From an uncultured Elusimicrobia bacterium (GTDB taxonomy: Bacteria > Elusimicrobiota > Elusimicrobia > CAZMIB01): a stretch of DNA of 64,000 nt. A program made the translations under genes and the position numbers. The stretch covers positions 4,777-68,776 of the forward strand of contig CAZMIB010000001.1 of NCBI GenBank assembly GCA_964566245.1, given 5' to 3'. The notes under the pieces were generated by a model. It made no database searches and was not told where the DNA came from. It saw only the letters and a list, made by a program, of their open reading frames with translations. Below are positions 1-57,849 of this stretch, one piece after another. The first letter of the stretch is position 1. Each line of letters starts with the position of its first letter.

Positions 1-474
1 CTTGCCGACCGCCTTGAAGATGGCGTCTGCCAGATGCAGATGCTCCTCGGTGGCGTGCGCGCCGCGCGCGATCGCGGTCGCGCCCTGGTCGATCAGGCAG
101 GGAGTGTTCGGCATCGCGCGCACGACCGGCAGGTCCTGGCCCAGCTTCCGGGCGATCAGCTCGGTCGTGATGCCGGCCATCACCGAGATGACGAGCTGGT
201 CGTTGGTCAGCGCGGGAGCGAGCTGCGCGAGCACGTCGGAGGACTGCTGCGGCTTCACCGCCAGGATCACGATGTCCTTGCCGCGCACCGCCTTCGCGTT
301 ATCGGTCGTGACCGCGACGCCCCACTGCTTGTGAAGCGCCGCGAGGGCCTCCTCGTTGCGCCGGGAGCAGACGATCCGTCCGGGCTCGACCAGCTTGCCG
401 CGGACCATGCCGCCGACCAGCGCCGCCCCCATGTGACCCGCCCCGACCACCGCGATCGACTTGTGCTTGAGCAT
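1..474 (-). CDS. proC: Pyrroline-5-carboxylate reductase, 5'-partial; start codon at 472-474, gene runs off the window start
   Basis: My translation of the reverse complement gives MLKHKSIAVVGAGHMGAALVGG...VISVMAGITTELIARKLGQDLPVVRAMPNTPCLIDQGATAIA. This is the typical NAD(P)-binding Rossmann N-terminus and conserved MPNTP motif of ProC. Confidence 0.8.
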   Translation of the reverse strand, partial: MLKHKSIAVVGAGHMGAALVGGMVRGKLVEPGRIVCSRRNEEALAALHKQWGVAVTTDNAKAVRGKDIVILAVKPQQSSDVLAQLAPALTNDQLVISVMAGITTELIARKLGQDLPVVRAMPNTPCLIDQGATAIARGAHATEEHLHLADAIFKAVGK

Positions 475-535: not shown

Positions 536-3500
536 ATGAAAACAGCCTCGGTGCGACGACGAGAGTCCCTTGTCCTCGCGTTGCGGGGGCTGACGCTGCT
601 GCTCGCGCTGGCGTGCCCGTGGGGGCGCGCCTTCGCGGCGGCGGAGGACGAGGAGTCCAAGCCGGTCAACCTGTGGCCGGTGTTCGTCAAGAAGGCCGAC
701 AAGGACTACCTCGACGTCGAGGTCCTGTTCTCCCTGCTTTCGTACACGCGCGACGGACGCAAGCTGGACCTGGCGATACGGCCGCTGTACTGGCGCTCCA
801 CCGACCGCTCCCGCGACTACGCGCGCACCGACGTGCTCTGGCCGCTCGCGACCCGGATCCGCGAGGGAGACAAGCGCTCGCTGCGCGTCTTGCCGCTGTT
901 CTACCAGAAGCGGACCCCGCCCGAGTTCTACTCGCTGCTGTTCCCGCTTTATCACTACACGTCGGAAACCGATCGCTGGCGCCTGGGCGTGATCGGCTTC
1001 ATACCGTTCACGGTGTTCGACTTCGAGCACGATTACGAGCGCGACCGCACCCACCATCGCTACATCATCTGGACTTACGATCGGTCCGCCGAGCAGGTCA
1101 ATATCAACCTGGCCCCGCTCTACACGCAGCAGACCGCGCCCGGCCAGGGCTCGATCACCATGCTGCCGCTGTTCGCCGACGCCTGGCATCAGCCGACGGG
1201 CTACCACCGCGTGTCGTTCATCGGCTTCTCCGACTATTTCAACCTGGCCGAGTACCGGCGCGACCCGCCGAAGAAGCTCGTCGAGGGCCACTTCCTCGTC
1301 TTCTGGAAGAAGCGCATGGACCTCGACTACCGCACGATCTTCTTCCCGGTCTATTGGCATTCGAAAAGCGGGGCCGACACCTCGCTGTTCTTCTGGCCGG
1401 TCTTCGGCCGCCGCGAGCGCGGCACCGCGGTCGAATACTCGACCATCTGGCCGTTGTTCTCGTTCGAGCGCGACGCGAAGGAGAAGGAGACCGACATCGG
1501 CTTCCTCTGGCCGCTGGGCCGGGACTACAGCGTCGGGACGCGCCGCGAGGCTCGCTTCCTGCCGCTGTTCTCCTGGATCTCCGACCCCAAGACGCACGAG
1601 GAGCCGGGCCTGGTGACCTTGGCGCTGTCCTTGCCGCTGCCGCTGTCGTACCGCGCCGTCGGCGCCGACTTCCATTATCACCGCGTCTTCTATATCGCCT
1701 GGATCACCGAGAACAAGGATGCGGTCCGAAACGTGGTCTTCAACCATTACCTGTTCAAGGACAAGGCCTCGGGCACGATCCACCAGGGCTTTTTCCCGAT
1801 CTACCACGGCTCGCGCTGGGACAAGAGCGCGCTGGACGTGGTCCTGCCGCTGTTCGGGTCGTACCGGCGGCCCGACTTCCGCTTCGAGACCTTGCTGCCG
1901 CTGTACTGGCGCTACGCCTCCAGCGACACCGCGACCGGCGTGCTGTTTCCGTTCTACTTCTCGCACGAGTCGGCGCTGTACGGGATGCAGGTCGTGTTCC
2001 CGTTCTACTACCACTCGCTGGACCGCAAGCTCGGGACCGAGCTGAACTACTACTTCCCGCTCTACGGGACCTACCGCCGCGGCGACGTCGTCACGCGCCG
2101 GCTGCTTTTCTTCCCGCTGTACTCGCGGCTGTACGACCCGGCCCTGGGCCTGCGCTCGCTCGACGTGCTGTGGCCGTTCTTCCACGTCGACAGCGGGCCG
2201 GACGCCTCCTCGACGCGCGTGCTGCCGTTCTATTGGCGGGCCGACCGGCCGGAGCGCTCGTTCAGGATCGCCTTCCCGCTTTATTGGGACTACGCGACCC
2301 CGCAGACGCGGCACCGCTACTTGTTCCCGTTCTACGGCTCGTACGCGAGGGCCGACGAGCTGAGCCTCTCCGTCTTCGGCCCGTTCTACTGGGACGTGCG
2401 CCGCCCGCGCGAGAACTACCGGCGCAGCGACTTCCTGCTCGCGCTGTACTCGCGCGCGCAGGCCGGCGACGAGGTCCGCAGCCATCTCCTGCCGCTCTAC
2501 TGGCGCTGGACCTCCCCGGAGCAGGACGCGCGCTACCTGCCGCCGCTGGCCGGCTACCACAGGATGTCGGACGGCTACCGGAACCTCTTCCTGCTCGGGA
2601 TCAACCGCTCGGTGAACCTGTTCGACTTCGAGCGCGCCCCGCGCTACAACTCGCGCTCCGACCGCGCCCTGCTGTACTACAGCCGCGAGGACAGGACCTC
2701 GGCCTTCACGACGCTGTTCCCGCTGTACTGGAAATGGCGCGACCCCGAGGAGACGGGGCACATCCTGTTCCCGCTGTTCGGCAAGCACGAGGACCTGGCC
2801 GCCGGAAGCTGGGACGTGTCGGTGCTCGGCCTGCCGGAGGGCTTCAGCCTGCTGGAGTTCGGCGGCGAGCGCCAGCGCGACGCGGAGTCCTCGCGCTGGC
2901 TGCTGTTCTACCACGGACGCGAGGGCCGGGATTACACGACCGTCTTCTTTCCGCTGTTCTGGGACCGCCGCTCGCCGCCGTACAGCCGCTCGCAGTTGTT
3001 CCCGTTCTACGCCTACAAGCGCGACGACCAGGAGGGCGAGAAGCGCTTCGGAATCCTCGGCGTCACGCCGCGCATCAGCTTCTATTCGTGGTCCGACACG
3101 CCGCTCGACAAGACGAACCGCCTCTGGCCCCTGTTCAGCTACGGGAGGGACAAGAAGGAGGATGAGGTGTTCCTCAGCCTGCTCGGCGTCCAGCGCGAGA
3201 TCAGCCTGTTCCGCGCCTCGCGCCGCCGCGAGGACGTCTCGACCAGCCTGTTCCCGCTGTACGGCTACGAGCGGCGCGGGCATCTCGGCGAAAGGGACTA
3301 CTACCGCGAGACGAAGGTGCTGTGGCGCCTGTACTACAACGGGCGGGAGGTGACCGGGCGCTCGGACTTCCGCCTGCTGTACCGCTTCCGGCGCGTCTAC
3401 AACGCCCCCGACGAGTCGGCCTTCGAGCTGAACCCGTTCTATTTTTCCGTCCGCCACGGCGGCAGCACCTATCGCGCTATCCTAGGCGGCCTCTTCGGCG

Positions 3501-3553
3501 TCGAGACCCGAGCCGACGGCACCCACGGCTACACCTTCTTCTGGGTGTTCTGA
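536..3553 (+). CDS. Large (1005 aa) secreted repeat protein. It has an N-terminal signal peptide (…CPWGRAFA|AAED). The body consists of dozens of degenerate ~22-25 aa aromatic repeats (LFPLYW / FPFYG / LPLFG / WPLF). The C-terminus ends ...FFWVF. Possibly an outer-membrane or surface beta-rich protein.
   Basis: The ORF-track protein shows a periodic aromatic/Arg/Asp-rich motif, a signal peptide and a C-terminal aromatic residue, which is characteristic of beta-barrel outer-membrane proteins. No family recognised by eye. Confidence 0.55.
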   Translation: MKTASVRRRESLVLALRGLTLLLALACPWGRAFAAAEDEESKPVNLWPVFVKKADKDYLDVEVLFSLLSYTRDGRKLDLAIRPLYWRSTDRSRDYARTDVLWPLATRIREGDKRSLRVLPLFYQKRTPPEFYSLLFPLYHYTSETDRWRLGVIGFIPFTVFDFEHDYERDRTHHRYIIWTYDRSAEQVNINLAPLYTQQTAPGQGSITMLPLFADAWHQPTGYHRVSFIGFSDYFNLAEYRRDPPKKLVEGHFLVFWKKRMDLDYRTIFFPVYWHSKSGADTSLFFWPVFGRRERGTAVEYSTIWPLFSFERDAKEKETDIGFLWPLGRDYSVGTRREARFLPLFSWISDPKTHEEPGLVTLALSLPLPLSYRAVGADFHYHRVFYIAWITENKDAVRNVVFNHYLFKDKASGTIHQGFFPIYHGSRWDKSALDVVLPLFGSYRRPDFRFETLLPLYWRYASSDTATGVLFPFYFSHESALYGMQVVFPFYYHSLDRKLGTELNYYFPLYGTYRRGDVVTRRLLFFPLYSRLYDPALGLRSLDVLWPFFHVDSGPDASSTRVLPFYWRADRPERSFRIAFPLYWDYATPQTRHRYLFPFYGSYARADELSLSVFGPFYWDVRRPRENYRRSDFLLALYSRAQAGDEVRSHLLPLYWRWTSPEQDARYLPPLAGYHRMSDGYRNLFLLGINRSVNLFDFERAPRYNSRSDRALLYYSREDRTSAFTTLFPLYWKWRDPEETGHILFPLFGKHEDLAAGSWDVSVLGLPEGFSLLEFGGERQRDAESSRWLLFYHGREGRDYTTVFFPLFWDRRSPPYSRSQLFPFYAYKRDDQEGEKRFGILGVTPRISFYSWSDTPLDKTNRLWPLFSYGRDKKEDEVFLSLLGVQREISLFRASRRREDVSTSLFPLYGYERRGHLGERDYYRETKVLWRLYYNGREVTGRSDFRLLYRFRRVYNAPDESAFELNPFYFSVRHGGSTYRAILGGLFGVETRADGTHGYTFFWVF

Positions 3554-3567
3554 CACAACTAAAGAGT

Positions 3568-3602
3568 GCCCTCTCCTAATGGGAGAGGGTGGGGGTGAGG
3601 GG
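3568..3602. repeat. GC-rich palindromic element copy (CCCTCTCC-TAAT-GGGAGAGGGTGGGGGTGAGGG), intergenic after the large repeat-protein gene. A perfect 14-bp palindrome GGGTCCTAGGACCC lies at 3656-3669.
   Basis: Sequence read directly; it shares the GGGAGAGGGTGGGGGTGAGGG arm with the other copies. Confidence 0.7.
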
Positions 3603-3727: not shown

Positions 3728-5380
3728 ATGACCGTCTTCCGTCTGTTCCTTTGCGCTGTTCTCGCTCTTCAGCCCTTCCGCGCCGCGTTGGGCGCGACCA
3801 AGGCCGATAAGCCCGGCTTCTCGCCCATCCTTCCCGTCGGGCTGAACCAGGCCGCGCCGGCCCTGCCTCAACTCCAAGCTCCGCTTGTCGCTCCCTCGGC
3901 CGCGCCGGCTCCAGCGCCGAGTCTCGCCCCGGTCTCGGGCACCTCCGGGGTCAACGCCAAGGAGGCGATCGCCTTTCTCAAAGGGCGGAAAAAAATAAGG
4001 GCGGTGTTCGTCGACGCGGCCGGCTACGGACACCAGACGGCGACGCTGTCCTTGATACGGCGTTTGCGCGAGTTGGGCTACGAAGGGAAACTAGAGGCCG
4101 TCTTTGAGAACGACATCTTGGACGAGGACCGCGGATTGTCCAAGAAGCTGGGCCAGCTTCTTCCGGAGTTCGACCCGTTCGGGCCCGCCGTCCAGCATCT
4201 GCCGGGCCTCGGCCTGACGATGCGGGATCTCGGGCCCCGCGACCGCGGCCAAGGGCCCGTCCGCCTGGAGCCCGTCGCGCTGGCGTTCACGGGCGGCGCC
4301 GACCCCAAGCGTTCCTACGCGCGAAAATACAACGCCGACGTCTTCCTGCGCCTGGGTCCGATGGGCTGGCTGGAGCAAAACTATTGGGAGGTCTATCCGG
4401 ACCAGCTCTATCGTCGCGACCAGGAGGCCGGGATTCCGATCCGGTCGAGACGAGACGCTCCGTTGATCTACCGGCCTTTGGCCGAGGAGATGGACGATGC
4501 TTGGTTCTCGCGGATAGCCCCCGCGAACCTCGAGCCTGAAAAGGCGGCGGGCCTGAAGACCTTGGCGCGCCGCATTGAAGAGCATGACGTTCTCGCCGCC
4601 TACGGGCTTCAGTATTTCAACGAGGACAGATTGACCTTGCTTCTCGTTTCCATCTCGCACGCCATGGAGACTCGTCCCGAGCTGTTCAAGGGCCGCGGCG
4701 TGGTCGTGCCGCTGTTGTCGGAGTTCCAAGGCGCTATCGCCGGCGTTCAATCCCGGCTCGATCACCCAAGGCGGGACAACGGCTGGATAGCGGCGCCGCG
4801 CCGGGGCGCGGCGATCTCGAGCAAGCGAAAGGCGGCTCGGCGCGTGAGCTTCGCCGACGTGCGCGATCCGGACCTGGACGTGACGCTGCGCCGCGTGGGT
4901 CCGGGGGATATCGTCGTCGTCGAGACGGGCGCCGTCCCGCCGGCGCTGTTCGAGCGACTGTTTTCCGCGAGCACCTTGCCGCCGACCCTGGAGGGCTGCA
5001 ACGCGACCAACCTGGCCCGTCTGCTGGGCCTGCCTTTCCTGCCGGTCACCATGTGGCAGCTCGACCGGCTCGTCGATCGGTTCGCCGCCTCCGAGGCCAA
5101 GCGACGGGAGGTGAGCCGGTTGGTTTATTCCCGCCGCGCCGGCATGCACGACTCGATCGCTTACGCGCTGCTGGGCGGCGAGGGCGAGTTCGCCTTCGAG
5201 CGCATCGCGGCGTACATCGCGGCCGCGATGACGCCCGGCTCGTCGCTCCGGCGCATGTTCGAGGACGCGAAACTGCGACAGGATGATTATATTCGCGACA
5301 AGCTGGTTTTCGCCGCGCGGCGAGCCCTGGCCATGTCGCGCCGAGACGCCGCGGGCGCGTCGGGGAAGCCTTCGCCATGA
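3728..5380 (+). CDS. Secreted protein, paralog 1 of 3 (unknown family). It has a signal peptide, a Pro/Ala-rich linker and a conserved ~450-aa domain. Motifs: KKIRAVFVDAAGYGHQTATLSLIRRLRELG, TGGADP, and ETGAVPPALFERLFSASTLPPTLEGCNATNLARLLGLPFLP.
   Basis: ORF 3650..5380 re-started at ATG 3728 (MTVFRLFLCAVLALQPFRAALGATKADKP) by alignment with the paralog 2 and 3 N-termini. Stop overlaps the next start (ATGA). Confidence 0.6.
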   Translation: MTVFRLFLCAVLALQPFRAALGATKADKPGFSPILPVGLNQAAPALPQLQAPLVAPSAAPAPAPSLAPVSGTSGVNAKEAIAFLKGRKKIRAVFVDAAGYGHQTATLSLIRRLRELGYEGKLEAVFENDILDEDRGLSKKLGQLLPEFDPFGPAVQHLPGLGLTMRDLGPRDRGQGPVRLEPVALAFTGGADPKRSYARKYNADVFLRLGPMGWLEQNYWEVYPDQLYRRDQEAGIPIRSRRDAPLIYRPLAEEMDDAWFSRIAPANLEPEKAAGLKTLARRIEEHDVLAAYGLQYFNEDRLTLLLVSISHAMETRPELFKGRGVVVPLLSEFQGAIAGVQSRLDHPRRDNGWIAAPRRGAAISSKRKAARRVSFADVRDPDLDVTLRRVGPGDIVVVETGAVPPALFERLFSASTLPPTLEGCNATNLARLLGLPFLPVTMWQLDRLVDRFAASEAKRREVSRLVYSRRAGMHDSIAYALLGGEGEFAFERIAAYIAAAMTPGSSLRRMFEDAKLRQDDYIRDKLVFAARRALAMSRRDAAGASGKPSP

Positions 5381-7200
5381 CGCGCTCCCGGCTGGCCGCT
5401 TGCTTTCTCCTCGTCGGCGCTCGCCTCGCCGCCTTCGGCGCGACGAAGGCGGACAAGCCCGTCCTTCCGTTCCTCGCGCCGACGGCTCTCAACGAAACAG
5501 TTCCGGCGATCCCCGCAATCGCGCGGCCCTTGGTGGAAGGGGCAGGTCTTGAACAGCCGGTTCTTGTCCCCGTAGCCCCGCGGCCCGAGCCCTCACCCCA
5601 CCCTCTCCCGCTACCGGGAGAGGGTGCTGAGGCGGTCGCGAAGTTTCCCCGGCGCCTGGCCGGGCTCTCCGAGGTGCTCGACGCGAATCGGCCCGCCGAA
5701 CGGCAGGCCGCGGCGCTCGACGCGGCGTTCTCCGGCGCGGCGGGAAAAGAGGAGGGGGAGCGGGGCGTCTCGGGCCTCGCCCTTGCGGAAGGAAAGGTTC
5801 CGCCCGAGGAGGCGATCGCCTACCTTAAAAGCCTCAAGAAGATCCGGGTCGCTTTCGTCAACGCTCCGGGCTTCGGCCATCAGATGGCGACGGTCTCGTT
5901 GATCCGCCGACTCAGGGAGCTGGGCTGCGAGGGCGAGATCGAGGCGGTTTATAAGGATCTGGATTTGCTGGGGAAAGCGAACCGGGTGCTGCGCGACAAG
6001 CTGGGCCAGCTTTTACCGGAGTTCAACCCCATCGGGCACAAAGTCCAACTCCTGCGGAGCGTGGGCGTGACGATGCGCAACATCACGCACGAGGAAGACT
6101 CCTTGCCCCGCGTCTCCTTCGGCCTCACCGGCGGCGCCGACGGCAACGAGCGTTTCGCGGACAAGTACAACGTCGATACCTTCCTGCGCCTGGGGCCCAT
6201 GGACTGGCACCGCCATTACCGGGACCAAGTCTACTTCAGGGCGCTCGGCGCCGGCATCCCGGTAGACGTCCGCGACGACGCGGCGCTCCTCTATCGTCCG
6301 GGATCGGAGGCGATCAACGATGATTGGTTCGGCCGTCTCAAGCGGGCGAACGTCGATCCGTCGAAGGCGGCCGGCCTGCGGACCTTGGTCCGCGGGCTCG
6401 GGGAGCACGACGTCCTCGCGTCCTACGGGCTGGCGAAGTTCAGGCCGAGCTCTCTGGCGGTGGCGCTCGCCTCCGTCGCCCGCGCGATGGACGAGCGGCC
6501 CGAGCTGTTTCGGAAACGAGGCGTCGTCGTGCCGCTTCTCCTGGATGTCGACTCGACGGTCACGGGAGTGGAAGCGATCGTCGCCGCGCCGGAGAAACAT
6601 AACGCGGACGTCGCTCCGACGCGCCTGCCGGCGGTGATCGCGGCGAAGCGCCGGCTGGGCGAACGGCTCAAGATCGCGTCGATCGGTGAGCCCGGGCTGA
6701 AGCACAGGCTGGGACGGTTGGGATCCGGGGACATTTTGGTCGTGAAGACGGGCGGCGCCCCGCCCGCGTTGTTCGAGCATTTTTTCAAGCGAAGCACGTT
6801 GCCGCCGACCGTGGAGGGCAAGAACGCTCAAAACCTTTGCCGCCTCCTGGGTATCCCTTTCCTGCCGCTGGACATGCTGCAGCTCAACGCGCTGATGCAA
6901 GAGCTTCCGGAACTGGGCGCGGACCGCCAGGCGGTCCAAGGCTTGCTCTATTTTCCAGGAGAGGACGGTCCGATGTCGCTGGCGTTGGCGTTGCGCTACG
7001 CGCAAACGGAGTTCGCCGTCGAGCCGATCGCGGCGTATATCGCCGCCGCCCTGACTCCCGGCTCGCCGCTGCGCCGGATGTTCGCCGACGCGCGGCTCGG
7101 GCAGGACGACTACGCCCGCGACAAGCTCGTCTCCGCGGTCCAACGCGTCCTCTTCCTTCAAAAAAGCGACTTGTCCTTGGCCCGCGCGCCGCGACCATGA
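5377..7200 (+). CDS. Secreted protein, paralog 2 of 3. Motifs: KKIRVAFVNAPGFGHQMATVSLIRRLRELG and KTGGAPPALFEHFFKRSTLPPTVEGKNAQNLCRLLGIPFLP.
   Basis: Aligns clearly with paralogs 1 and 3. Signal peptide MTRSRLAACFLLVGARLAAFGATKADKP. The N-terminal linker contains a palindromic-element copy (5589-5629). Confidence 0.65.
   Translation: MTRSRLAACFLLVGARLAAFGATKADKPVLPFLAPTALNETVPAIPAIARPLVEGAGLEQPVLVPVAPRPEPSPHPLPLPGEGAEAVAKFPRRLAGLSEVLDANRPAERQAAALDAAFSGAAGKEEGERGVSGLALAEGKVPPEEAIAYLKSLKKIRVAFVNAPGFGHQMATVSLIRRLRELGCEGEIEAVYKDLDLLGKANRVLRDKLGQLLPEFNPIGHKVQLLRSVGVTMRNITHEEDSLPRVSFGLTGGADGNERFADKYNVDTFLRLGPMDWHRHYRDQVYFRALGAGIPVDVRDDAALLYRPGSEAINDDWFGRLKRANVDPSKAAGLRTLVRGLGEHDVLASYGLAKFRPSSLAVALASVARAMDERPELFRKRGVVVPLLLDVDSTVTGVEAIVAAPEKHNADVAPTRLPAVIAAKRRLGERLKIASIGEPGLKHRLGRLGSGDILVVKTGGAPPALFEHFFKRSTLPPTVEGKNAQNLCRLLGIPFLPLDMLQLNALMQELPELGADRQAVQGLLYFPGEDGPMSLALALRYAQTEFAVEPIAAYIAAALTPGSPLRRMFADARLGQDDYARDKLVSAVQRVLFLQKSDLSLARAPRP
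5589..5629. repeat. GC-rich palindromic element copy (GCCCTCACCCCACCCTCTCCCG-CTACC-GGGAGAGGGTG) inserted in frame in the paralog 2 linker, where it encodes EPSPHPLPLPGEGAEA
   Basis: Direct read of the sequence and its translation. Confidence 0.75.
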
Positions 7201-9185
7201 CCGCCTCCCGCCGTCTCGCGCTTCTCCTCTCGCTCGGCCTCGCGGCCGGAGCAAGAGCCGCGACGGAGAAGGAATCCCCTCCGGCCGTCGTTGTCGTTCC
7301 CTCGCCCCCGATGGGGGGAGAGGGTGGGGTGAGGGGGTTGGCGGCTCCCATGCCCTCACCCCTTCCCTCTCCCGCAAGCGGGCGAGGGAGTTCCTTGGGA
7401 AACATCTCCCAGCCTGCCGCGCATTTTCATCCTTTGCCTCCTGCGGTCGTGTCCGCGGTTCGCGTTATCACCGCCGCGAAGGCGGCTGTCGGCAATGCCG
7501 TCTCTCCGGCGGCGAAAGCCGCGGCGCTGGATCGCCTCTACTCCGGCGCGGCCGAGAGAGACGGCGTCGAAATTCTCGAGACCTCCGATGCCGCGGGGCC
7601 GGGTTTCGCGAGCCTCGCGGCGCGTCGATCCGAGCCTCCGGCGCGCGCGCCCGCGGCCTTCGATCCGGCGCCGGATATCGCCTTCCTCAAGCGCCTCAAG
7701 AAGATACGCGTCGTGTTCACTCATGCCCCGGGCCTCGGCCACCAGACGGCGACGTTGTCGATCGTCCGCCGGCTCAGGGATTTGGGCGTCAAGGCGCCGA
7801 TCGAGGCGATCTATCATGCCGTCAAAGGGGACCCGCAAGACCTCAGGCTCAAGCTGGCCCAGCTCATGCCCGAGTTCGATCCTCACGGCCCGGATGATCA
7901 GCGCGTGCCGTCGCTGAACATGACTTTGCGAAGCTGGGACAGCTTCAGGCGCGACAGGGACGACGTGGTGCTGGGGCTGACCGGAGGCGCGGACAAGTCC
8001 ATCGGCAATTTCGCCCGCCAATACCGGACAGAGATTTTCGCGAGGCTGAAACCTTACGGCTGGGGGGACTACGAGGACGAGCTTCACGTCCTCGAGAGCG
8101 GCAAGGTGAGCTTGCTGTCCTACATCGACGCGTCCTCGGGCCACGGGGCCTTTGTCTATCGGCCCGCCCAGGATCAGGTCGGCGCGGCGTATGTCGATGC
8201 TTTAAACCCGAATAATGTTCCGGCGGCGAAGGCCGCCGGCCTGAAGGTCCTGTTGCGCGAGCTGCCGAAGCGCGACTCCTTGGCCGCCTACGGCCTCCAC
8301 TTCTTCACGCCGCGCGCGCTTCACCGCCTGCTGCTCGGAGTGTCTCGCGCGTTGGACGATCGGCCCGGCTTGTTCAAGGGCCGGGGCGTGGTCGTGCCGC
8401 TGCTTCTCGATATCGACGACACGGTCGACGACATGCAGGATCAAATCAAAATCCCGCGCTTGATCTTGAACTCCGTCACCGATCCGCGGTGGCGCGCCGT
8501 CCTTGTCGCCAACGGCAAGCTGCGCCGCCGGCTGAAGATCGCCGACATACGCGACCCGGCCCTGTCGGAAAAGATCGAGGGAATGAAGCCCGACGACATC
8601 CTTGTCGTGAAGACGGGTGCCGTTCCGCCGCCGCTCTTCGAATGGTTCTTTTCGCGTAGCACCTTGCCGCCGACCTTGGAGGGCAAGAACGCGACCAACC
8701 TCGCGCATCTGCTGGGCATCCCCTTCCTCCCTATCAAGGAGGACGTCCTGGCGGGGCTCATCGATCGCGTTCCCGAGGGCGGGCCCAGGGAGGCGGTCGC
8801 CGCGCTGCTCCACGTCCGGACCGGCGTCATCGGCATGTCCATCTCCGCCGTGCTGCACCATGACGATTTCAGCTTCGCCTTCGAGAAGCTCGCCGACTAC
8901 ATGATCGCGGCGATGACGCCCGGCTCGCCGCTGCGGGAGATGTTCCGGAGCGCGCGCATCGCCCAGGACGATTACGCGCGCGACAAGCTGCTGCAGGCGG
9001 TCCGACAGGCGAGGCCGCGGATGGGCGCCCCGCCGAGTCCATGGCGCCGGTTCCTCGACGCCTGCCTCCGGTGGCTTCCCGGCCGCTCCAAGGAAAAGCC
9101 CGCGCCGCCGCCGGCTTCCCAGGGCCGGCAAGGGCCCACGGGACGCGAGCGGGTGAGCTTTTTCGGCCCCAAGGACCCTCTTTAA
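7197..9185 (+). CDS. Secreted protein, paralog 3 of 3. Motifs: KKIRVVFTHAPGLGHQTATLSIVRRLRDLG and KTGAVPPPLFEWFFSRSTLPPTLEGKNATNLAHLLGIPFLP.
   Basis: ORF 6837..9185 re-started at ATG 7197 (MTASRRLALLLSLGLAAGARAA) by paralog alignment. Start overlaps the paralog 2 stop. The linker carries two palindromic-element copies. Confidence 0.6.
   Translation: MTASRRLALLLSLGLAAGARAATEKESPPAVVVVPSPPMGGEGGVRGLAAPMPSPLPSPASGRGSSLGNISQPAAHFHPLPPAVVSAVRVITAAKAAVGNAVSPAAKAAALDRLYSGAAERDGVEILETSDAAGPGFASLAARRSEPPARAPAAFDPAPDIAFLKRLKKIRVVFTHAPGLGHQTATLSIVRRLRDLGVKAPIEAIYHAVKGDPQDLRLKLAQLMPEFDPHGPDDQRVPSLNMTLRSWDSFRRDRDDVVLGLTGGADKSIGNFARQYRTEIFARLKPYGWGDYEDELHVLESGKVSLLSYIDASSGHGAFVYRPAQDQVGAAYVDALNPNNVPAAKAAGLKVLLRELPKRDSLAAYGLHFFTPRALHRLLLGVSRALDDRPGLFKGRGVVVPLLLDIDDTVDDMQDQIKIPRLILNSVTDPRWRAVLVANGKLRRRLKIADIRDPALSEKIEGMKPDDILVVKTGAVPPPLFEWFFSRSTLPPTLEGKNATNLAHLLGIPFLPIKEDVLAGLIDRVPEGGPREAVAALLHVRTGVIGMSISAVLHHDDFSFAFEKLADYMIAAMTPGSPLREMFRSARIAQDDYARDKLLQAVRQARPRMGAPPSPWRRFLDACLRWLPGRSKEKPAPPPASQGRQGPTGRERVSFFGPKDPL
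7298..7338. repeat. GC-rich palindromic element copy (CCCTCGCCCCCG-ATGG-GGGGAGAGGGTGGGGTGAGGGGG) in frame in the paralog 3 linker
   Basis: Direct read. Confidence 0.7.
7352..7391. repeat. GC-rich palindromic element copy (GCCCTCACCCCTTCCCTCTCCCGCAAGCGGGCGAGGGAG, followed by TTCCTTGGGAA) in frame in the paralog 3 linker, where it encodes [15 protein letters not shown]
   Basis: Direct read. Same left arm and GCAAGC loop as the copies at 15673 and 33975. Confidence 0.75.
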
Positions 9186-9234: not shown

Positions 9235-9909
9235 ATGGCGTCGCCGTCGCAGTTTCAAAAAATCCTGGAGAACACCCAAGTGGTGCTCCAGCCGAGCCAT
9301 GCGCTGTCGACCTTCGGCGCGACCCGGGTCGTCTATCACCTGGTCTCGTCCATCGACGGGCTCGACGACCGCGCGCGCTTGCGCGAGGGCGAGATCGCGG
9401 CCGAGAAGCCGCTGATCCTGACGCCCGACGCCCTCAAGGAGCGCTTCGAGGGCTTCGGCGAGGAAGGCCGGCCCTACGCCGAGTTCATCCAGGGCGCCTA
9501 CCGCGAGGCCCTGCGCGCGCTCGAGTACCGGTTCAAGAACACGCCCGGCTCGACGCGCGTGCTGCACGAAAGCGCGCGCACCGTGGCCGAGCGCATCAAG
9601 GCCGAGGTCGAGTCCGGCGATAAACGCGCCGGGGTGCTGGTCTGCCCGGACGGCGGCTGGCAGCTCGCGCTGATGCGCTTCACCCTCGAGGAGGCGCTGC
9701 GCTCCTTTCCGACCAACGTGCGCGACCTCGAGCGGCGGGGGATGTTCGACCCGGACAAGCGCGAGAGCGACAGGAAGCGGCGCGAGATCGACGAGCTTTT
9801 CCGGCGCGCCGCGGGCGACCGTTCCCTTCTCTCCCAGCTCGGCGAGCGCCTGAAGGCCTACGGGCTGTTCAGCGAGTACGAGGACCGCTTTTACCGGCTA
9901 TTGAACTAG
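9235..9909 (+). CDS. Hypothetical protein (224 aa)
   Basis: ORF track only; no motif recognised. Acidic/basic helical composition. Confidence 0.45.
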   Translation: MASPSQFQKILENTQVVLQPSHALSTFGATRVVYHLVSSIDGLDDRARLREGEIAAEKPLILTPDALKERFEGFGEEGRPYAEFIQGAYREALRALEYRFKNTPGSTRVLHESARTVAERIKAEVESGDKRAGVLVCPDGGWQLALMRFTLEEALRSFPTNVRDLERRGMFDPDKRESDRKRREIDELFRRAAGDRSLLSQLGERLKAYGLFSEYEDRFYRLLN

Positions 9910-10726
9910 GCCGCCGCCAGGCGGCCTCGAGATTTTCCAGCCTCGGATAAGGATAGGACTGCGCCGCCGCTTTCTCAAGAGGAACTCCCTCGCGCAGCCG
10001 CCGGCACAGTTTCCCGAAAGCGAGCGGGCCGTGCGTCTCGAGAAGGAAGCGCACCAGCGACTCGGCCTGCGCGTACCACGCGCTCACGCGCTGCGCGGGA
10101 TCGTCGTCCGCGGGCGCGGTCCGCGCGAGGTCTCTCAGCGAGGGTGACGGGGCGGGCGGGCGGCGCTGACTTTCGTCCTCCATCGCCATCGCGAGCCCCT
10201 CGTCCAGCCAGCGCGGCGGGGTTGTTCGCTCCTCGGCGAAATAGGCGCCCATCAGCAGATGGGTCAGCTCGTGCGCCAAGGTCTTCTCGATGCCGTCCTG
10301 CGCGAAAGTCTCGACCGCGCGCCCCTGAAGCCCGCCTCCGCCCTGCGGCCGGTACGAGGCGAAGCCGGTCGACCACGGGGGCGGATGCAGGGGGCCGGCC
10401 AGGTAGGCCGCGCGGTCCTTGTGGATGACGATGTCGATCCGCTCCTGGCTCATCCACGGCGCGACGCCGCCCAGGCTCGCGCGCAGGCGGCCGTGGATCC
10501 TCTCCAGCGAGCCGAGCACACCGCGAGGGGGGAAGGGCGTCTCGTAGCGGACGCGGAAGTGAAGCGTGAGGCTGTCGTGCGCCCACTCCATGCCGAACGA
10601 CAGCAGCGCCGAAAGGATCAGGCTCGCCAGCAGGAGCAGTCCGACGAAGAGGACGCCCCACCGTCTGGCGCGCGGCGTCTCCTCGGGCGGAGGCGCCTGC
10701 ATATACTCCCGGTCTCGAAGCCCCAT
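9869..10726 (-). CDS. Membrane-anchored putative zinc metallopeptidase (HExxH: AHELTHLLMG), peptidase-MA-like
   Basis: N-terminal TM segment WGVLFVGLLLLASLILSALLSFG, plus the HELTH motif with a downstream Glu (WLDEGLAMAME). Confidence 0.5.
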   Translation of the reverse strand: MGLRDREYMQAPPPEETPRARRWGVLFVGLLLLASLILSALLSFGMEWAHDSLTLHFRVRYETPFPPRGVLGSLERIHGRLRASLGGVAPWMSQERIDIVIHKDRAAYLAGPLHPPPWSTGFASYRPQGGGGLQGRAVETFAQDGIEKTLAHELTHLLMGAYFAEERTTPPRWLDEGLAMAMEDESQRRPPAPSPSLRDLARTAPADDDPAQRVSAWYAQAESLVRFLLETHGPLAFGKLCRRLREGVPLEKAAAQSYPYPRLENLEAAWRRPSSIAGKSGPRTR

Positions 10727-15451: not shown

Positions 15452-16011
15452 ACCGAACGCCGGCGGCGCTGATCGAGGTCTCGACGCGAGAGGGCTTCAG
15501 CGACTCCGCCGCCTCCGGCGTTCTATCGCTGGCGAAAGAGCTGGGCGTCCCGGTCGAAAAAGCCGCGACCGTCGCGCTGTACCGGTTGGAAGGGGACCTG
15601 GATCGCGCGGCGCTGACGAAGCTGGCGTCCGAGCTGCTGACGGATCCGGTCACCGAAACATACGAAATTGTTCCCTCACCCCAACCTTCTCCCGCAAGCG
15701 GGCGAGGGAGCTCTTCAATAAGCAACTCTGTTCCATTAGAAAGGAACTCCCTCGCACCGCGTGAGCGGGGAGAGGGCCGGGGTGAGGGGCAGTCGTTGCC
15801 GTGCCTCACCCTCGACATCTGGCTCAAACCCCAAGTCGCCGACCCGGTCGCGCCATCCATTGAACGCGGCGCGAAGGACCTGGGCTTTTCCTTGAAGGCC
15901 CGCATCGGCCGCCGCTATCGCCTGTTCGGGCCGTTGAACGCCGAGGCCGCCAAGACCGTCGCCTGGAAGGCGCTGGCCAATCCCGTCGTCCACGAGTGCG
16001 AGGTCCGATGA
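15448..16011 (+). CDS. purS: PurS-like FGAM synthase subunit. It is unusually long (187 aa) and contains two PurS-like halves separated by a 117-bp palindromic-element insertion.
   Basis: The second half, CLTLDIWLKPQVADPVAPSIERGAKDLGFSLKARIGRRYRLF...ANPVVHECEV, is canonical PurS. The first half, ...LTDPVTETYEIV, is PurS-like. Position is between purC and purL. Confidence 0.65.
   Translation: MNRTPAALIEVSTREGFSDSAASGVLSLAKELGVPVEKAATVALYRLEGDLDRAALTKLASELLTDPVTETYEIVPSPQPSPASGRGSSSISNSVPLERNSLAPRERGEGRGEGQSLPCLTLDIWLKPQVADPVAPSIERGAKDLGFSLKARIGRRYRLFGPLNAEAAKTVAWKALANPVVHECEVR
15673..15789. repeat. Long (117 bp) version of the GC-rich palindromic element, with terminal inverted repeats CCCTCACCCC...GGGGTGAGGGG. 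Inserted in frame in purS, where it encodes [14 protein letters not shown]...RERGEGRGEG.
   Basis: Direct read: the left end CCCTCACCCCAACCTTCTCCCGCAAGCGGGCGAGGGAG and the right end GCGGGGAGAGGGCCGGGGTGAGGGG are inverted relative to each other. Confidence 0.75.
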
Positions 16012-18383
16012 GCTTCCTGCGCGCGTCCCTCGCCGAGCTTGAGACCCTCAGCCGTGAGCGGCAATGGTCGCTGGATCGGATCGAGCTGAAGGCGATCCAA
16101 GACCATTTCAAGAAGCTCAAGCGCGAGCCGACCGACGTCGAGCTGGAGACGTTGGCCCAGACCTGGTCCGAGCACTGCAAGCATAAGACGCTCACCAGCC
16201 CGCTCCTATATAAGGAAGGGGGCAAGGCCCGCCGCTTCAAGAACCTGCTCAAGGAGACGATTTTCGACGCGACCCGGCGGCTCAAGAAGCCATGGTGCCT
16301 GTCGGTGTTCAAGGATAACGCCGGCATCGTCGCCTTGGACAAGGACTGGGCCTTGGCCTTCAAGGTCGAGACCCACAACCACCCCTCGGCGATCGAGCCC
16401 TACGGCGGCGCGGCCACCGGCGCGGGCGGCGTGATACGCGACGTGCTCGGGGCCGGCCTCGGCGCCAAACCGGTGATGAACACCGACGTGTTCTGCGTCG
16501 GCCCGCTGGATCACGAGGGCGACCTGCCCGAGGGCTTCTTCCCGCCGCGCCGCACCTTGCGCCAGATCACGGCCGGCGTGCGCGACTACGGCAACCGCAT
16601 GGGCATACCGACCGCCAACGGCGGCCTGGCCTTCGACCCCGGCTTTCTGACGAACCCGCTCGTCTTCTGCGGCACGGTCGGCGTGATCCCGCGCAAGGCC
16701 GTGAAGAAAAGCGTACGCCCGGGCGACCTCATCGTCGCGGTCGGCGGCCGCACCGGCAGGGACGGCCTTCACGGCGCCACTTTTTCTTCCGCCGCGCTGG
16801 ATGATGCCGCGAGCGTCAGCGCGGTGCAGATCGGCAACGCGATCGAGGAGAAGAAATTCCTCGACGTTCTGCTGCAGGCGCGCGACAAAGGCCTGTACCG
16901 CGGCGTCACCGACTGCGGGGCCGGCGGCTTCTCATCCGCGATCGGCGAGCTCGGCGCGGAAATCGGCGCCGAGGTGCGCCTCGAGACGGCCCCGCTGAAG
17001 CACGAGGGGCTGAAGGCGTGGGAAATTTGGCTGTCCGAGTCCCAGGAGCGCATGGTCCTGGCCGTGCCCCCGTCCCGCTGGCCGGCGCTGAAGTCCCTGT
17101 TCGACGCCGAGGACGTGGAGGCCGTCGCGCTCGGGACCTTCAAGAAGACGGGGCGGCTGCAGGTCTACTTCAAGGACGAGCTGGTCGCCGATTTGTCGAT
17201 GAAGTTCCTGCATGAGGGACTGCCGAGGTATGAGCGAAGGGCGGAGTGGAGCGGACGAAAGAACCCTCACCCGCCCTCCGGGCACCCTCTCCCACAAGTG
17301 GGAGAGGGTGGGGGTGAGGGGCATGATTCCTCCAATCTAGGCTCCGCCCTCAAGGCCCTCCTCTCCCATCCCAACATCTGCTCCCGCGAGTGGATCGTCC
17401 GCCAGTATGATCATGAAGTCCAAGGTCAGACGATCGGCAAGCCGTTTCAGGGGCCGGGGCAGGGGCCGGGGGACGCGGCGGTGATTTGGCCGGTGACGAC
17501 CACGGGCGCCAAGCGCATTCCCGCGTTCGCGGTCTCGAACGGGATCACGATCGGGGCCGCCGATCCGTATAAAGGCGCCGTCGCCGCGGTCGACGAGGCG
17601 CTGCGCAATCTCGCCGCGGCCGGGGCCGACGTCCGGCGCGCGGCCTTGCTCGACAATTTCTGCTGGGGCGATCCGAAGGACCCGCGCGAGCTGGGCGGCC
17701 TCGTCCGCGCGGCGCTCGGCTGCCGCGACGCGGCGCTCGGTTACGGCGCGCCGTTCATCTCGGGCAAGGACAGCCTCAACAATACCTACGCCGACGCCTC
17801 CGGCCGCCGTGCCTCGATCCCCGGGACCTTGCTGATCTCGGCGCTGGCCCCGCTGCCCGATCCGAAGCGCCGCATGACGATGGATTTGAAAGGCTCCGGT
17901 CACGCGGCGTTTCTCGTGGGCCCGGCGGCCGAGGGCTTCGTCTTTTCGCGAGAGGTTCTGGCCGCGCTGTTCAAGGCGATCCAAAGCGGCTTCGTCCTCG
18001 CCTGCCACGACCTTTCGGAGGGCGGGCTCGCGGTCGCCGCGGCCGAGATGGCCTTCGCGGGGAACGTCGGCCTGGAGCTGTCGCTGAACGGCTTCACCTC
18101 CTCGAGCGACGCCGAGGCGCTGTTCGGCGAGGGCCTTACGCGCTTCTTGATCGAGGCCGCCCCCGGGCGCGAGCGCAAGCTGGCGGCCTTGCTGCACGAC
18201 CATCTTTTCATCGAGGTCGGCCGGACGATCGCCGAGCCCGTCCTGCGCGCGCGGCATCAGAGCCGCGTCGTCCTTCAGGAGAACCTCGGCGAGCTGCGCG
18301 AGGCCTGGTCCACGGCCTTGGCCCGCGAGCTGGACGGCCGGCGCTCCCAAGCGCCGGCGCCGGCCCGGGAGGTGGCGGCATGA
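16008..18383 (+). CDS. purL: Phosphoribosylformylglycinamidine synthase subunit PurL (small PurL). It carries an in-frame 58-bp palindromic-element insertion.
   Basis: ...ETHNHPSAIEPYGGAATGAGGVIRDV...; ATGA overlap with the purS stop. Confidence 0.9.
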   Translation: MSFLRASLAELETLSRERQWSLDRIELKAIQDHFKKLKREPTDVELETLAQTWSEHCKHKTLTSPLLYKEGGKARRFKNLLKETIFDATRRLKKPWCLSVFKDNAGIVALDKDWALAFKVETHNHPSAIEPYGGAATGAGGVIRDVLGAGLGAKPVMNTDVFCVGPLDHEGDLPEGFFPPRRTLRQITAGVRDYGNRMGIPTANGGLAFDPGFLTNPLVFCGTVGVIPRKAVKKSVRPGDLIVAVGGRTGRDGLHGATFSSAALDDAASVSAVQIGNAIEEKKFLDVLLQARDKGLYRGVTDCGAGGFSSAIGELGAEIGAEVRLETAPLKHEGLKAWEIWLSESQERMVLAVPPSRWPALKSLFDAEDVEAVALGTFKKTGRLQVYFKDELVADLSMKFLHEGLPRYERRAEWSGRKNPHPPSGHPLPQVGEGGGEGHDSSNLGSALKALLSHPNICSREWIVRQYDHEVQGQTIGKPFQGPGQGPGDAAVIWPVTTTGAKRIPAFAVSNGITIGAADPYKGAVAAVDEALRNLAAAGADVRRAALLDNFCWGDPKDPRELGGLVRAALGCRDAALGYGAPFISGKDSLNNTYADASGRRASIPGTLLISALAPLPDPKRRMTMDLKGSGHAAFLVGPAAEGFVFSREVLAALFKAIQSGFVLACHDLSEGGLAVAAAEMAFAGNVGLELSLNGFTSSSDAEALFGEGLTRFLIEAAPGRERKLAALLHDHLFIEVGRTIAEPVLRARHQSRVVLQENLGELREAWSTALARELDGRRSQAPAPAREVAA
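17264..17321. repeat. GC-rich palindromic element copy (CCCTCACCCGCCCTCCGGGCACCCTCTCCCACAAGTGGGAGAGGGTGGGGGTGAGGGG) inserted in frame in purL, where it encodes [21 protein letters not shown]
   Basis: Direct read. Confidence 0.8.
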
Positions 18384-44491: not shown

Positions 44492-45874
44492 ATGAGGCTC
44501 AAAATCGCGGATATTCTACGCCTGATCCGGAAGGGCGAATCTCAGACGCTCGAGTTCAAGCAATCCTTCGGCCGCGAAACCCTGGAAACTCTCTGCGCCT
44601 TCGCGAATACCGATGGTGGGATCGTTCTGGTCGGGGTCAGCGACGCCGGCGTAGTGACCGGAACGCAGGCGTCCAAGGCTTCTCTGCGTGACTGGGCCAA
44701 CCAGATAGCTCAGGGCCTCGGTCTTCATCCATCGATCCGTACGGCCCCGCTTGAGGGGAAGGAAGTCGTTGTCATCGAGGCCCCGGAGAGCCATATCAAG
44801 CCCGTGCTCTTTCAGGGGAGGGGCTATGGGCGCTCCGGCTCCACGACCCACCAGATGACCGTTGAAGAAATCGCGTCCGCCGCCCTTTCCCGCGTCGGTA
44901 TGACGTGGGACTCGGTCCCCGAGAGCCGCGCCAAGCTCGCCGACATCTCTGGTCCCAAGATTCGGGCGTTCATCGCCGCGGCGAACCGAGAGAAGCGGCG
45001 TCCGGTGCCAGCCGGGACTTCGCCGATGGACTTGCTGAAGAAACTCAAGCTCGTCCGAGCGGGCAAACCGACTCGGGCGGCGATCCTCCTCTTTGGGAAG
45101 GATCCTCAGGATTTTTATCCACAGGCTAGGCTCAAGATCGGGCGATTCCGGGACGAGACTCTGATCGTGGATGACCGCCGCATAGACGGCACCCTCTTCG
45201 ACCAGGTGGAAGGCGCGATGAGCTACTTCCGCGAGAAGCTGGATACCCGATTCGAGAGGACCGGCCGCCCGCAGCGCGACGTGATCTGGGAATACCCGTT
45301 GAAGGCTTTGCGCGAGGCCGTAACCAACGCTATCTGCCATCGGGACTACTCAGGCACCCGCGACTCCGAAGTTCGGCTCTACGATCACGAGGTCATGATC
45401 TGGAACGATGGCGACTTGCCGCCGGAATTGTCGGTGCAGGCGCTCAGGAAGAAGCACCCCTCGGTGCCTCGCAACAAGCAGATCGCCGAAATCTTCTACT
45501 ACGCTGGGATGATCGAGCAGTGGGGAAGCGGGACCGGTATGATGCGCGACGAATGCAGGGCGGCCGGAATGCCGGCTCCCATCTTCGAGCAAAAGCACGG
45601 CCTTCGGGTGACGTTCAAGAAGGCGGTCCCCAAGACCCTCCCAGGACCCTCCCATGACACCTCCCATGAACCTCCCATGACCGAGACGACCGTGGACCGG
45701 GTGCTTTCTTTCTGTAAAGCGCCGCGGTCCAGGGTCGAGATCGCCAAAGAACTGGGTTTGAGCTCGGAGTATGTCCGAAAGTGGATACTTCCCGAGCTCG
45801 TTCGTTCCGGGAAGCTGAGGCTTACTCTGCCTGAAAAGCCGCAGAGCAAACAACAGCGCTATGTCAGCCGCTAA
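44492..45874 (+). CDS. Schlafen-like AlbA_2 plus HATPase_c_4 domain protein (putative transcriptional regulator; this family is often mis-annotated as RecG-like)
   Basis: N-terminus ESQTLEFKQSFG...LCAFANTDGGIVLVGVSDAG (AlbA_2); C-terminus LREAVTNAICHRDYSG...VRLYDHEVMIWNDGDL (HATPase_c_4). Confidence 0.7.
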   Translation: MRLKIADILRLIRKGESQTLEFKQSFGRETLETLCAFANTDGGIVLVGVSDAGVVTGTQASKASLRDWANQIAQGLGLHPSIRTAPLEGKEVVVIEAPESHIKPVLFQGRGYGRSGSTTHQMTVEEIASAALSRVGMTWDSVPESRAKLADISGPKIRAFIAAANREKRRPVPAGTSPMDLLKKLKLVRAGKPTRAAILLFGKDPQDFYPQARLKIGRFRDETLIVDDRRIDGTLFDQVEGAMSYFREKLDTRFERTGRPQRDVIWEYPLKALREAVTNAICHRDYSGTRDSEVRLYDHEVMIWNDGDLPPELSVQALRKKHPSVPRNKQIAEIFYYAGMIEQWGSGTGMMRDECRAAGMPAPIFEQKHGLRVTFKKAVPKTLPGPSHDTSHEPPMTETTVDRVLSFCKAPRSRVEIAKELGLSSEYVRKWILPELVRSGKLRLTLPEKPQSKQQRYVSR

Positions 45875-49530: not shown

Positions 49531-49636
49531 GAAACTCGCCCGGAACATAGCTCAACAATGGCCGATGCAAGCCAGGCATGAGACCGTCGACGCCGGGCCA
49601 ATCGGGCAACCGGGGTTGCCCAATTCGACGAAGCCC

Positions 49637-52552: not shown

Positions 52553-52743
52553 CGCAAGCGGACCAGACCCCGGATTCAGTCCTGACCGAAGAGGTCATCA
52601 AGAGCCTGCGAAAGGAGATGCTGCTCCCCGAGAAGCAGTTGGACGCTCTTCGGACAAAGATTTCGTCCGGAAAGATGAGGGCCGAAGATTGGCAGGTGAT
52701 GATCGAGCTGGCGATGGACGCGGAGGCCAAGAAGGATGCCTAG
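52549..52743 (+). CDS. Small helical protein (64 aa), translationally coupled between the SNF2 helicase and the SMC-like ATPase
   Basis: ATGA overlap with the SNF2 stop; its own stop overlaps the next start. Composition is all helical. Low individual confidence. Confidence 0.4.
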   Translation: MTQADQTPDSVLTEEVIKSLRKEMLLPEKQLDALRTKISSGKMRAEDWQVMIELAMDAEAKKDA

Positions 52744-57847: not shown

Positions 57848-57849
57848 GC

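Follow-up and report, generated by a model that had tools for sequence, protein, structure and literature searches.

Three tandem paralogs with signal-like N-termini and a predicted GT-B glycosyltransferase fold in an Elusimicrobia genome: candidate exported transferases

The DNA analyzed here is a 64,000-nt stretch from an uncultured Elusimicrobia bacterium (GenBank assembly GCA_964566245.1, contig CAZMIB010000001.1, positions 4,777 to 68,776 of the forward strand), which is referred to below as the window and whose positions are counted from its first nucleotide. We focused on three consecutive genes, paralogs 1 to 3 (P1, P2 and P3), each of which encodes a signal-like N-terminus, a Pro/Ala-rich linker and a domain of about 470 aa that is predicted to adopt the GT-B glycosyltransferase fold (Table 1). 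Neighboring genes overlap by 4 nt in ATGA stop/start junctions, at 5377-5380 (P1/P2) and 7197-7200 (P2/P3). Over the full length, the other two proteins are 51% and 44% identical to P1, and identities among all three range from 46 to 54% on 463 trimmed columns, with E-values of 1e-103 to 1e-139 in tblastn comparisons between the copies. The similarity is far above chance, and P1-P3 are paralogs. A preliminary description of this region, made from the letters alone, had proposed tandem and translationally coupled paralogs of a secreted protein; the open reading frames (ORFs), the overlaps and the identities bear out the tandem, coupled arrangement.

Table 1. Features of the P1-P3 locus and of other parts of the window that are discussed in the text
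Feature	Residues (aa)	Position (nt)	Strand	Remarks
P1		3728..5380	+	550 aa; ORF reaches up to 3650
P1, predicted signal peptide	1-22	3728-3793	+	
P1, Pro/Ala linker	23-~74	3794-3949	+	
P1, predicted GT-B-fold domain	75-~545	3950-~5362	+	
P1, motif AAGYGHQ	97-103	4016..4036	+	His102 codon cac, 4031-4033
P1, motif TGGAD	188-192	4289..4303	+	contains Asp192
P1, C-domain motif TLPPTLEGCNATNLARLLGLPFLP	416-439	4973..5044	+	strand, Gly loop, helix, strand
P2		5377..7200	+	607 aa; database protein P0002
P2, predicted signal peptide	1-21		+	
P2, linker	22-~140		+	
P2, predicted GT-B-fold domain		from ~5797	+	
P3		7197..9185	+	662 aa; within longer ORF 6837-9185
P3, predicted signal peptide	1-21		+	
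P3, linker	22-~155		+	
P3, predicted GT-B-fold domain		from ~7674	+	
P3, C-terminal tail	~55 aa	~9012-9182	+	basic/Pro-rich
1005-aa signal-bearing protein gene		536..3553	+	upstream of P1; context only
224-aa ORF		9235..9909	+	50 nt after P3; no signal peptide, no family match
285-aa protein gene		9869-10726	-	Peptidase_MA_2 (HExxH metalloprotease); hydrophobic N-terminal segment; convergent to the 224-aa ORF
Copies of the dispersed repeat		3581, 7316, 7353, 10777, 15673, 15768, 17300, 23254, 31151, 31294/31300, 33976, 34003		
Intergenic repeat copy		3568..3601 (21-mer 3581-3601)	+	between 1005-aa gene and P1
In-frame repeat copy, P2 linker		5590..5627	+	encodes ...EPSPHPLPLPGEGA...; found as inverted repeats
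Two in-frame repeat copies, P3 linker		7298..7389	+	opposite orientation; encode PSPPMGGEGGVRG...
Schlafen/AlbA_2 + HATPase_c_4		44492-45874		low-GC region
Fic		46307-47758		low-GC region
SNF2 helicase		49565-52552		low-GC region
AAA_23/SMC-like		52736-55078		low-GC region
AAA_15 + OLD-TOPRIM, GajA-like		55083-57059		low-GC region
N6_N4 DNA methylase		57799-59532		low-GC region
ResIII		60689-63445		low-GC region

The N-termini of P1, P2 and P3 are MTVFRLFLCAVLALQPFRAALG, MTRSRLAACFLLVGARLAAFG and MTASRRLALLLSLGLAAGARA, followed after the putative cleavage site by ATKADKP, ATKADKP and ATEKESP, respectively. Read manually, each shows a basic n-region that precedes a hydrophobic core, with small residues in positions -3 and -1, and by this heuristic reading the three look like type-I (Sec) signal peptides, in agreement with the signal peptide previously placed on each paralog. 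The possible lipoboxes that had also been mentioned were not seen in P1-P3 by manual reading, and a lipoprotein assignment was rejected for want of a canonical lipobox at the proper distance. The signal-like segments depend on the choice of start codon. Public gene calls start P1 at 3650 (P0001, 576 aa), which puts 26 residues before its signal-like N-terminus, and P3 at ~7395 (P0005, 596 aa), which cuts off the signal-like N-terminus together with the repeat-bearing part of the linker; such calls would conceal the export signal from automated annotation. The starts at 3728 and 7197 are favored because they give the proteins a common MT..R start, a signal-like core and an AT(K/E)..(K/S)P motif. 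The linkers that follow are 58, 124 and 138 aa long in P1, P2 and P3, with Pro+Ala fractions of 0.43, 0.35 and 0.37 versus 0.18-0.19 in the domains, so that their description as low-complexity Pro/Ala segments holds.

All of the conserved blocks quoted earlier, including TGGAD, RLGPMGW and RPELFKGRGVVVPLL, were found in the P1-P3 alignment, where the first block reads KKIR..F..A.G.GHQ.AT.S..RRLR.LG and the late one TG..PP.LFE..F..STLPPT.EG.NA.NL..LLG.PFLP. In a neighbor-joining tree, P1 and P2 are sisters (54% identity) and P3 is the most diverged copy (46% to both); its position is older and it clusters with other lineages, which indicates that the array is ancient and has been maintained. 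In the N-lobe, P3 is 40-41% identical to P1 and P2, which share 54% with each other, and in the C-lobe the identities among the three are even (49-52%). Since the acceptor of GT-B enzymes is usually bound by the N-lobe, this lobe-wise divergence would fit a conserved donor site combined with diversified acceptor sites.

The fold of the shared domain was examined using an AlphaFold2 model of P1 residues 75-550, which was based on an alignment of nine homologs and has a predicted local distance difference test score (pLDDT) of 84.5 and a predicted template modeling score (pTM) of 0.85. The model consists of two Rossmann-like alpha/beta lobes with a cleft between them, followed by C-terminal helices, which is the layout of the GT-B fold. 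A Foldseek search of the PDB with this model retrieved GT-B-fold enzymes, EarP having the best TM-score, and the stronger matches in BFVD are mostly GT-B glycosyltransferases as well; true glycosyltransferases make up the best structural matches and the majority of the remaining ones. Thus, on the evidence of the model, a GT-B glycosyltransferase fold is well supported for the ~470-aa domain, with EarP as the closest solved relative. The loose likeness to GT-B enzymes noted in the preliminary description is therefore correct at the level of the fold, and the domain is indeed common to all three proteins, at ~470 aa rather than ~450 aa. P1-P3 gave no match in Pfam, NCBIfam, PADLOC or PHROGs (Pfam and NCBIfam scanned at E≤1), including the UDPGT, Glyco_transf_28, Glyco_tran_28_C and related Pfam profiles, and UDPGT/Glyco_transf_28-type profiles did not match the wider family members examined either. 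HMMER profiles built from 3 and from 103 sequences yielded only chance matches against all PDB chains. A profile match to a well-characterized family, which would have turned the array into an ordinary paralog expansion, was not found at the sequence level.

Conservation was computed over 103 diverse family members, in P1-domain numbering. At least 90% conserved are R17, G27, H28, G43, G46, P72, D118, P137, W140, Y218, G327, P344, G349, G360 and D450, and P1-P3 retain every one of these residues except G46 in P3. In the AAGYGHQ motif, the Gly is 100% and the His 96% conserved; His102 of P1 (H28) is placed after strand beta-1, at the N-terminus of helix alpha-1 (residues 15-20 and 27-41 of the model). 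We take the position of the conserved Gly-His to be that of the catalytic base of inverting GT-B enzymes (GT1, MurG), and His102 is the proposed catalytic base of P1. About 90 residues past this motif and after a model strand (109-114) comes the TGGAD Asp (Asp192, D118; 92% conserved), a candidate partner of His102 in an arrangement that would resemble the His/Asp pair of GT1-type enzymes. By sequence and model, H28 and D118 appear to hold the secondary-structure positions that correspond to the catalytic His (start of alpha-1) and Asp (after beta-4 or beta-5) of GT1/MurG-type enzymes. Those enzymes (YojK, YjiC, plant UGTs, GtfB and MurG) are cytoplasmic or located at the cytoplasmic face of the membrane, whereas P1-P3 bear signal-like N-termini. 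In the C-domain, TLPPTLEGCNATNLARLLGLPFLP appears to occupy the position of the GT-B loop for the donor diphosphate and sugar and is a putative donor site; the Gly of its EG is 100%, the Asn 82%, the Gly of LLG 95% and the Pro 87% conserved.

For comparison with EarP (PDB 6j7j, 5xvr and 5nv8), its real motifs were taken from PDB chains, and residue roles from the literature in Pseudomonas putida numbering, according to which Asp13, Asp17 and Glu273 are invariant catalytic residues and Arg271 binds the diphosphate (PMC5615199). The residue correspondences are those on which a hand alignment and hhalign agree, although the alignment itself is of low confidence. With partial EarP alignments built from fragments of at most 97 aa, hhalign aligned the family GH to the EarP GD (Asp17) without significance (probability 0.4%, E 0.15) and, gaplessly, the family C-lobe loop to EarP VRGEDSFVRAQWAGRPLLW (E 0.034, probability 1.5%). 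On this basis, the beta1-loop-alpha1 segment of EarP, VVDNYGDIGVTWRLARQL, which carries Asp13 and Asp17, would correspond to FVxAPGYGHQxATLSxxRRL in the family, with a near-invariant His in place of the catalytic Asp17 and Ala or Pro in place of the catalytic Asp13. The C-lobe donor loop VRGEDSFVRAQWAGRPLLW, which contains RGEDS, would correspond to LEGKNATNLARLLGIPFLP, where the catalytic Glu273 is replaced by a variable residue (Lys, Cys or Arg) and Asp274 of the donor loop by Asn. All real EarP fragments carry PF10093 (DUF2331), and P1-P3 do not match it (hmmscan, E≤1). Thus, sequence homology of the P1-P3 domain to EarP is not demonstrated, and the defining catalytic residues appear not to be kept. 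Moreover, EarP is a cytoplasmic protein of ~380 aa, whereas P1-P3 have a signal-like N-terminus, a long linker and ~100 extra C-terminal helical residues, and, unlike EarP, they and their relatives occur in tandem arrays. What is known here is the GT-B fold; what appears to be new is an exported or delivered family with an EarP-like architecture, in which His would replace a catalytic Asp of EarP.

A word-indexed search of 5.8 billion proteins identified 9 close relatives, including the 3 proteins of the window itself. Four Elusimicrobia metagenome-assembled genomes (MAGs) in the genome collection contain close relatives, and a Bdellovibrionales MAG has a more distant one. An exhaustive profile search with a cut-off of E≤1e-3 yielded 796 cluster representatives, mostly of 440-520 aa; stricter cut-offs of E≤1e-10 and E≤1e-30 left 557 and 133. 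A word-indexed search with the 103-sequence profile added no named proteins, and cluster look-ups returned no informative names; the family, which we take to be new and unannotated, is without a name in Pfam-A (2025) and NCBIfam (2026). By a crude hydrophobicity rule, a signal-like hydrophobic N-terminal core is present in 103 of 140 Met-initiated representatives, and homologs of other lineages keep both the signal-like N-termini and the long linkers.

Twenty members of the wider family were also compared with Pfam, NCBIfam, PADLOC and PHROGs; the glycosyltransferase-like (GT-like) domain remained unmatched, and only accessory domains were detected, namely eCIS_core (P0104), LysM (P0108 and P0130), HEAT (P0049), weak Ank (P0100) and a weak PIG-S (P0145). 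In protein P0104, the GT-B-like domain is preceded by an N-terminal eCIS_core/DUF4157 domain that contains HExxH, and the gene lies directly after the tape-measure and AAA genes of a contractile injection system (CIS), on the 3' side of the CIS locus. The same layout has been described for toxins of extracellular contractile injection systems (eCIS) (PMC8213781). The window proteins differ from such toxins in having Sec-type N-termini and no DUF4157, and no CIS genes were found among the window ORFs scanned. In four metagenomic proteins of 3,700-4,100 aa (P0108, P0130, P0146 and P0151), the domain is located at the extreme N-terminus, and both giants that were scanned (P0108 and P0130) have a LysM domain in mid-protein. 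Similarly, a ~4,096-aa protein encoded on plasmid pAB510d of Azospirillum sp. B510 (locus L015, NC_013858.1, 496931-509221; WP_012978053.1, annotated as 'Ig-like domain-containing protein') begins with the domain, which is internal in a Sorangium protein of 5,955 aa. Another protein, WP_327249993.1 ('hypothetical protein'; 26,327 aa), is encoded by a single coding sequence of 78,984 nt on a linear plasmid of Streptomyces sp. NBC_01320 (locus L016, NZ_CP108391.1, 266539-345522); it contains a complete copy of the domain (hhalign probability 99.8%, E 6e-30) that keeps the motifs AANFGHQAAA and LPAVLEGANTSNLVQLLGRPFF.

Nucleotide-sugar donors are made in the cytoplasm, and GT-B glycosyltransferases are accordingly located there or face it. 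With slightly less than even confidence, we propose that P1-P3 are exported GT-B transferases that act outside the cytoplasm of the producer, possibly as effectors; we infer their activity, donor, target and role. Action outside the cytoplasm is suggested because family members are almost always predicted to be exported or occur in delivery or giant architectures. Each protein would consist of three parts, a Sec signal-like N-terminus, a flexible Pro/Ala spacer and the ~470-aa enzyme domain, and after Sec export would transfer a sugar (or another nucleotide-activated group) at the cell surface or, following delivery, inside another cell; the most plausible substrates belong to another cell, in which nucleotide sugars are available. 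The chemistry would be an inverting, metal-independent GT-B mechanism, with the near-invariant His of the A-P-G-x-G-H-Q loop as the general base, possibly paired with the TGGAD Asp, and with the LPP..EG.N..NL...LG.PF strand-loop-helix of the C-lobe holding the diphosphate-sugar of the donor. The three old, diverged and coupled paralogs could then represent three acceptor or donor specificities.

Several points weigh against this proposal. To our knowledge, nucleotide-sugar donors do not occur in the periplasm or outside cells, so that a Sec-exported GT-B enzyme would need either entry to another cell or an unusual donor. Neither a dedicated delivery system nor a receptor-binding domain or an immunity gene was seen in the window. 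The link to eCIS comes from a single family member, P0104, which is only distantly related to P1-P3, and the signal calls come from a crude, heuristic hydrophobicity rule. The assignment of the putative His/Asp pair derives from sequence position and from profile alignments that are not significant (0.4% and 1.5%), and the window clade has Glu in alignment with Arg271, the EarP residue that binds the diphosphate. Weak Ank matches on P0100, below the Pfam thresholds, also count on this side.

A more specific version of the proposal, which we regard as unlikely, would be a so far unrecognized class of glycosylating toxins or effectors with a GT-B fold that are exported or delivered (through Sec, by a CIS or within giant proteins); the class would be derived distantly from the EarP/MurG-like lineage and would glycosylate proteins or other macromolecules of the target cell with the target's own nucleotide sugars. 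If EarP is a guide, such an enzyme might act on a translation factor or on an arginine residue, and the paralogs in tandem would amount to an arsenal that has diversified. Legionella SidI, a translocated effector that is predicted to have a GT-B fold and whose activity depends on GDP-mannose, offers a precedent for an exported GT-B-fold enzyme that uses the nucleotide sugars of the target cell (10.1101/845313). SidI differs from P1-P3 in being delivered by Dot/Icm and not by Sec, and in having PimB and not EarP as its best structural analogue; at the sequence level, no relationship to P1-P3 was detected. GT-A-type exotoxins and effectors with glycosylating activity (large clostridial toxins, NleB/SseK and Lgt1-3) are exported bacterial enzymes that modify target-cell proteins (background: PMC7199390 and PMC8961657) and would be functionally analogous to P1-P3 if the effector reading is right. 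They have a GT-A fold with a DxD motif and a metal ion, and none of them was among the structural matches of P1. A limited literature search found no paper on an EarP-like exported glycosyltransferase. If the effector reading is true, glycosylating toxins would be extended from the GT-A to an EarP-like GT-B fold; otherwise, an extracytoplasmic sugar-transfer chemistry with an unconventional donor would be revealed. The ~800 clusters are unnamed in Pfam and NCBIfam, yet most bear a signal, are fused to a cargo marker of injection systems or form part of giant proteins, and the Elusimicrobia, a poorly understood phylum, gain a candidate interaction factor that is fast-evolving and variable in copy number.

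It is likewise improbable, in our estimate, that P1-P3 are housekeeping periplasmic enzymes that modify the envelope glycans, lipids or outer-membrane proteins of their own cell, maybe together with the 1005-aa protein; such enzymes might use a non-nucleotide donor (for example, a lipid-linked sugar) or act as transglycosylases. Their Sec-type N-termini, with no further secretion or delivery module visible, would suit this role, as would the chromosomal, housekeeping surroundings (purine and pyrimidine biosynthesis genes at 11.7-37 kb) and the position of P1-P3 directly downstream, on the same strand, of a gene for a signal-bearing repeat protein. From this position, the preliminary description had suggested a shared envelope-associated function. 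The 1005-aa protein, rich in Arg, Phe and Tyr, contains 26 [FWL]P[LFV][FY] motifs, mostly 17 aa apart; its sole family match is a sub-threshold one to NCBIfam LA_1737_Cterm from Leptospira (33 bits versus a cut-off of 60), and its single-sequence AlphaFold2 model is unusable (pLDDT 30.8). No relative of its gene was found beside homologs of P1-P3 in seven other loci, one of which ends 226 bp upstream of its gene and is therefore uninformative, or in a metagenome scan. The pairing of a large repeat gene with the paralog array is therefore not syntenic in these loci, and the shared envelope function is unsupported. A 175-nt spacer with a hairpin repeat separates the 1005-aa gene from P1. Fast evolution and copy-number variation are atypical of housekeeping envelope enzymes, relatives are found as eCIS cargo or within giant multidomain proteins, and a GT-B enzyme that is soluble and periplasmic and takes a lipid-linked donor is not known to us. 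If P1-P3 were nevertheless ordinary envelope enzymes, the finding would shrink to the naming of a new GT-B family.

We consider a different chemistry on the GT-B scaffold somewhat more doubtful. The domain would then be a TagF-like phosphotransferase, a phosphorylase, a nucleotide-sugar or glycoconjugate hydrolase, or an epimerase, although the structural matches are led and dominated by true glycosyltransferases and the Gly-His position equals what we take to be the catalytic base of inverting GT-B enzymes. Still more doubtful is a non-catalytic module, that is, a degenerate GT-B fold which binds glycans or nucleotides or anchors giant surface proteins. In favor of such a module, several proteins of 3,700-4,100 aa with a LysM or Ig-like annotation begin with the domain, and donors are lacking outside cells. 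Against it, glycines and small polar residues are very strongly conserved at the canonical catalytic and donor-loop positions (G27 and G349, 100%; H28, 96%; D118, 92%), a pattern more typical of active enzymes than of scaffolds. Finally, although EarP is the best structural match, the possibility that P1-P3 are mis-annotated true EarP orthologues, cytoplasmic EF-P arginine rhamnosyltransferases with mis-called N-termini, is effectively excluded by the absent PF10093 match (profile-profile probability ≤1.5%), the replacement of D13, D17 and E273, the conservation of signal-like N-termini and long linkers across lineages, and the three to one copies per locus, unlike a single-copy modifier of a translation factor.

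As for the genomic context of the GT-like family, three loci from Elusimicrobia MAGs and a metagenome contig (L006, L007 and L017) share a common neighborhood of helicase, PLD (cls-like), glycosyltransferase, His-phosphatase and GGDEF genes. Here, the GT-like gene is the most diverged and fastest-evolving one, with 41% identity versus 50-70% for its neighbors in one pair and 59-61% versus 88-91% in another. One of the loci has it in inverted orientation, and its copy number is 1 or 2 versus 3 in the window. Tandem overlapping duplicates were found in three lineages, represented by the window (3 copies), L003 (2 copies) and L007 (2 copies). The PLD (cls-like) gene was rejected as a partner: it recurs in three loci that also have wider ancestral synteny in common, and it is absent from the window. 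No consistent operon partner of the family was found among the loci compared. The 224-aa ORF after P3 is not conserved beside homologs and is unrelated to the gene downstream in L003. In L006, two TldD/PmbA genes adjoin the GT-like gene. In a distant subfamily of the Bdellovibrionales type (L009, 8043-9917; L018, 126-2261), a conserved gene for a protein of 624-711 aa precedes the GT-like gene, and in L009 its stop codon overlaps the GT-like start. These upstream genes, with 32% identity between the two, have no Pfam match and are unrelated to the 1005-aa protein.

The window also contains a dispersed palindromic repeat. Its 21-mer core, GGGAGAGGGTGGGGGTGAGGG, has 11 matches in the window with at most 3 mismatches versus 0 expected, and the repeat family amounts to 11-12 copies in 64 kb, frequently as inverted pairs that flank genes. 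Such pairs lie between purC and purL (15673/15768) and just upstream of carB (33976/34003). The intergenic copy before P1 forms a perfect 10-bp hairpin without a T-run; a terminator and promoter scan of the window gave nothing above background, and scans for Rfam families and tRNAs found none in the window. It had been claimed that two of the three linkers were built by palindromic elements. Copies do lie in frame in the P2 and P3 linkers (those of P3 at 7307-7336 and 7353-7388 by inverted-repeat detection), yet they supply only part of each, ~12 of 124 codons in P2 and ~27 of 138 in P3. A further copy (17300-17320) is in frame within purL (FGAM synthase II, ORF 15996-18383), between AIRS domains. 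As the repeat also occurs in frame in this housekeeping gene, in-frame tolerance is a property of the genome and not specific to P1-P3, and the genome seems to tolerate insertions resembling repetitive extragenic palindromes as coding linkers.

At the far end of the window (~42000-64000), the GC content falls from ~0.67 to 0.57-0.62, and a run of defense-type genes is present (Table 1). This region is probably an acquired defense island.

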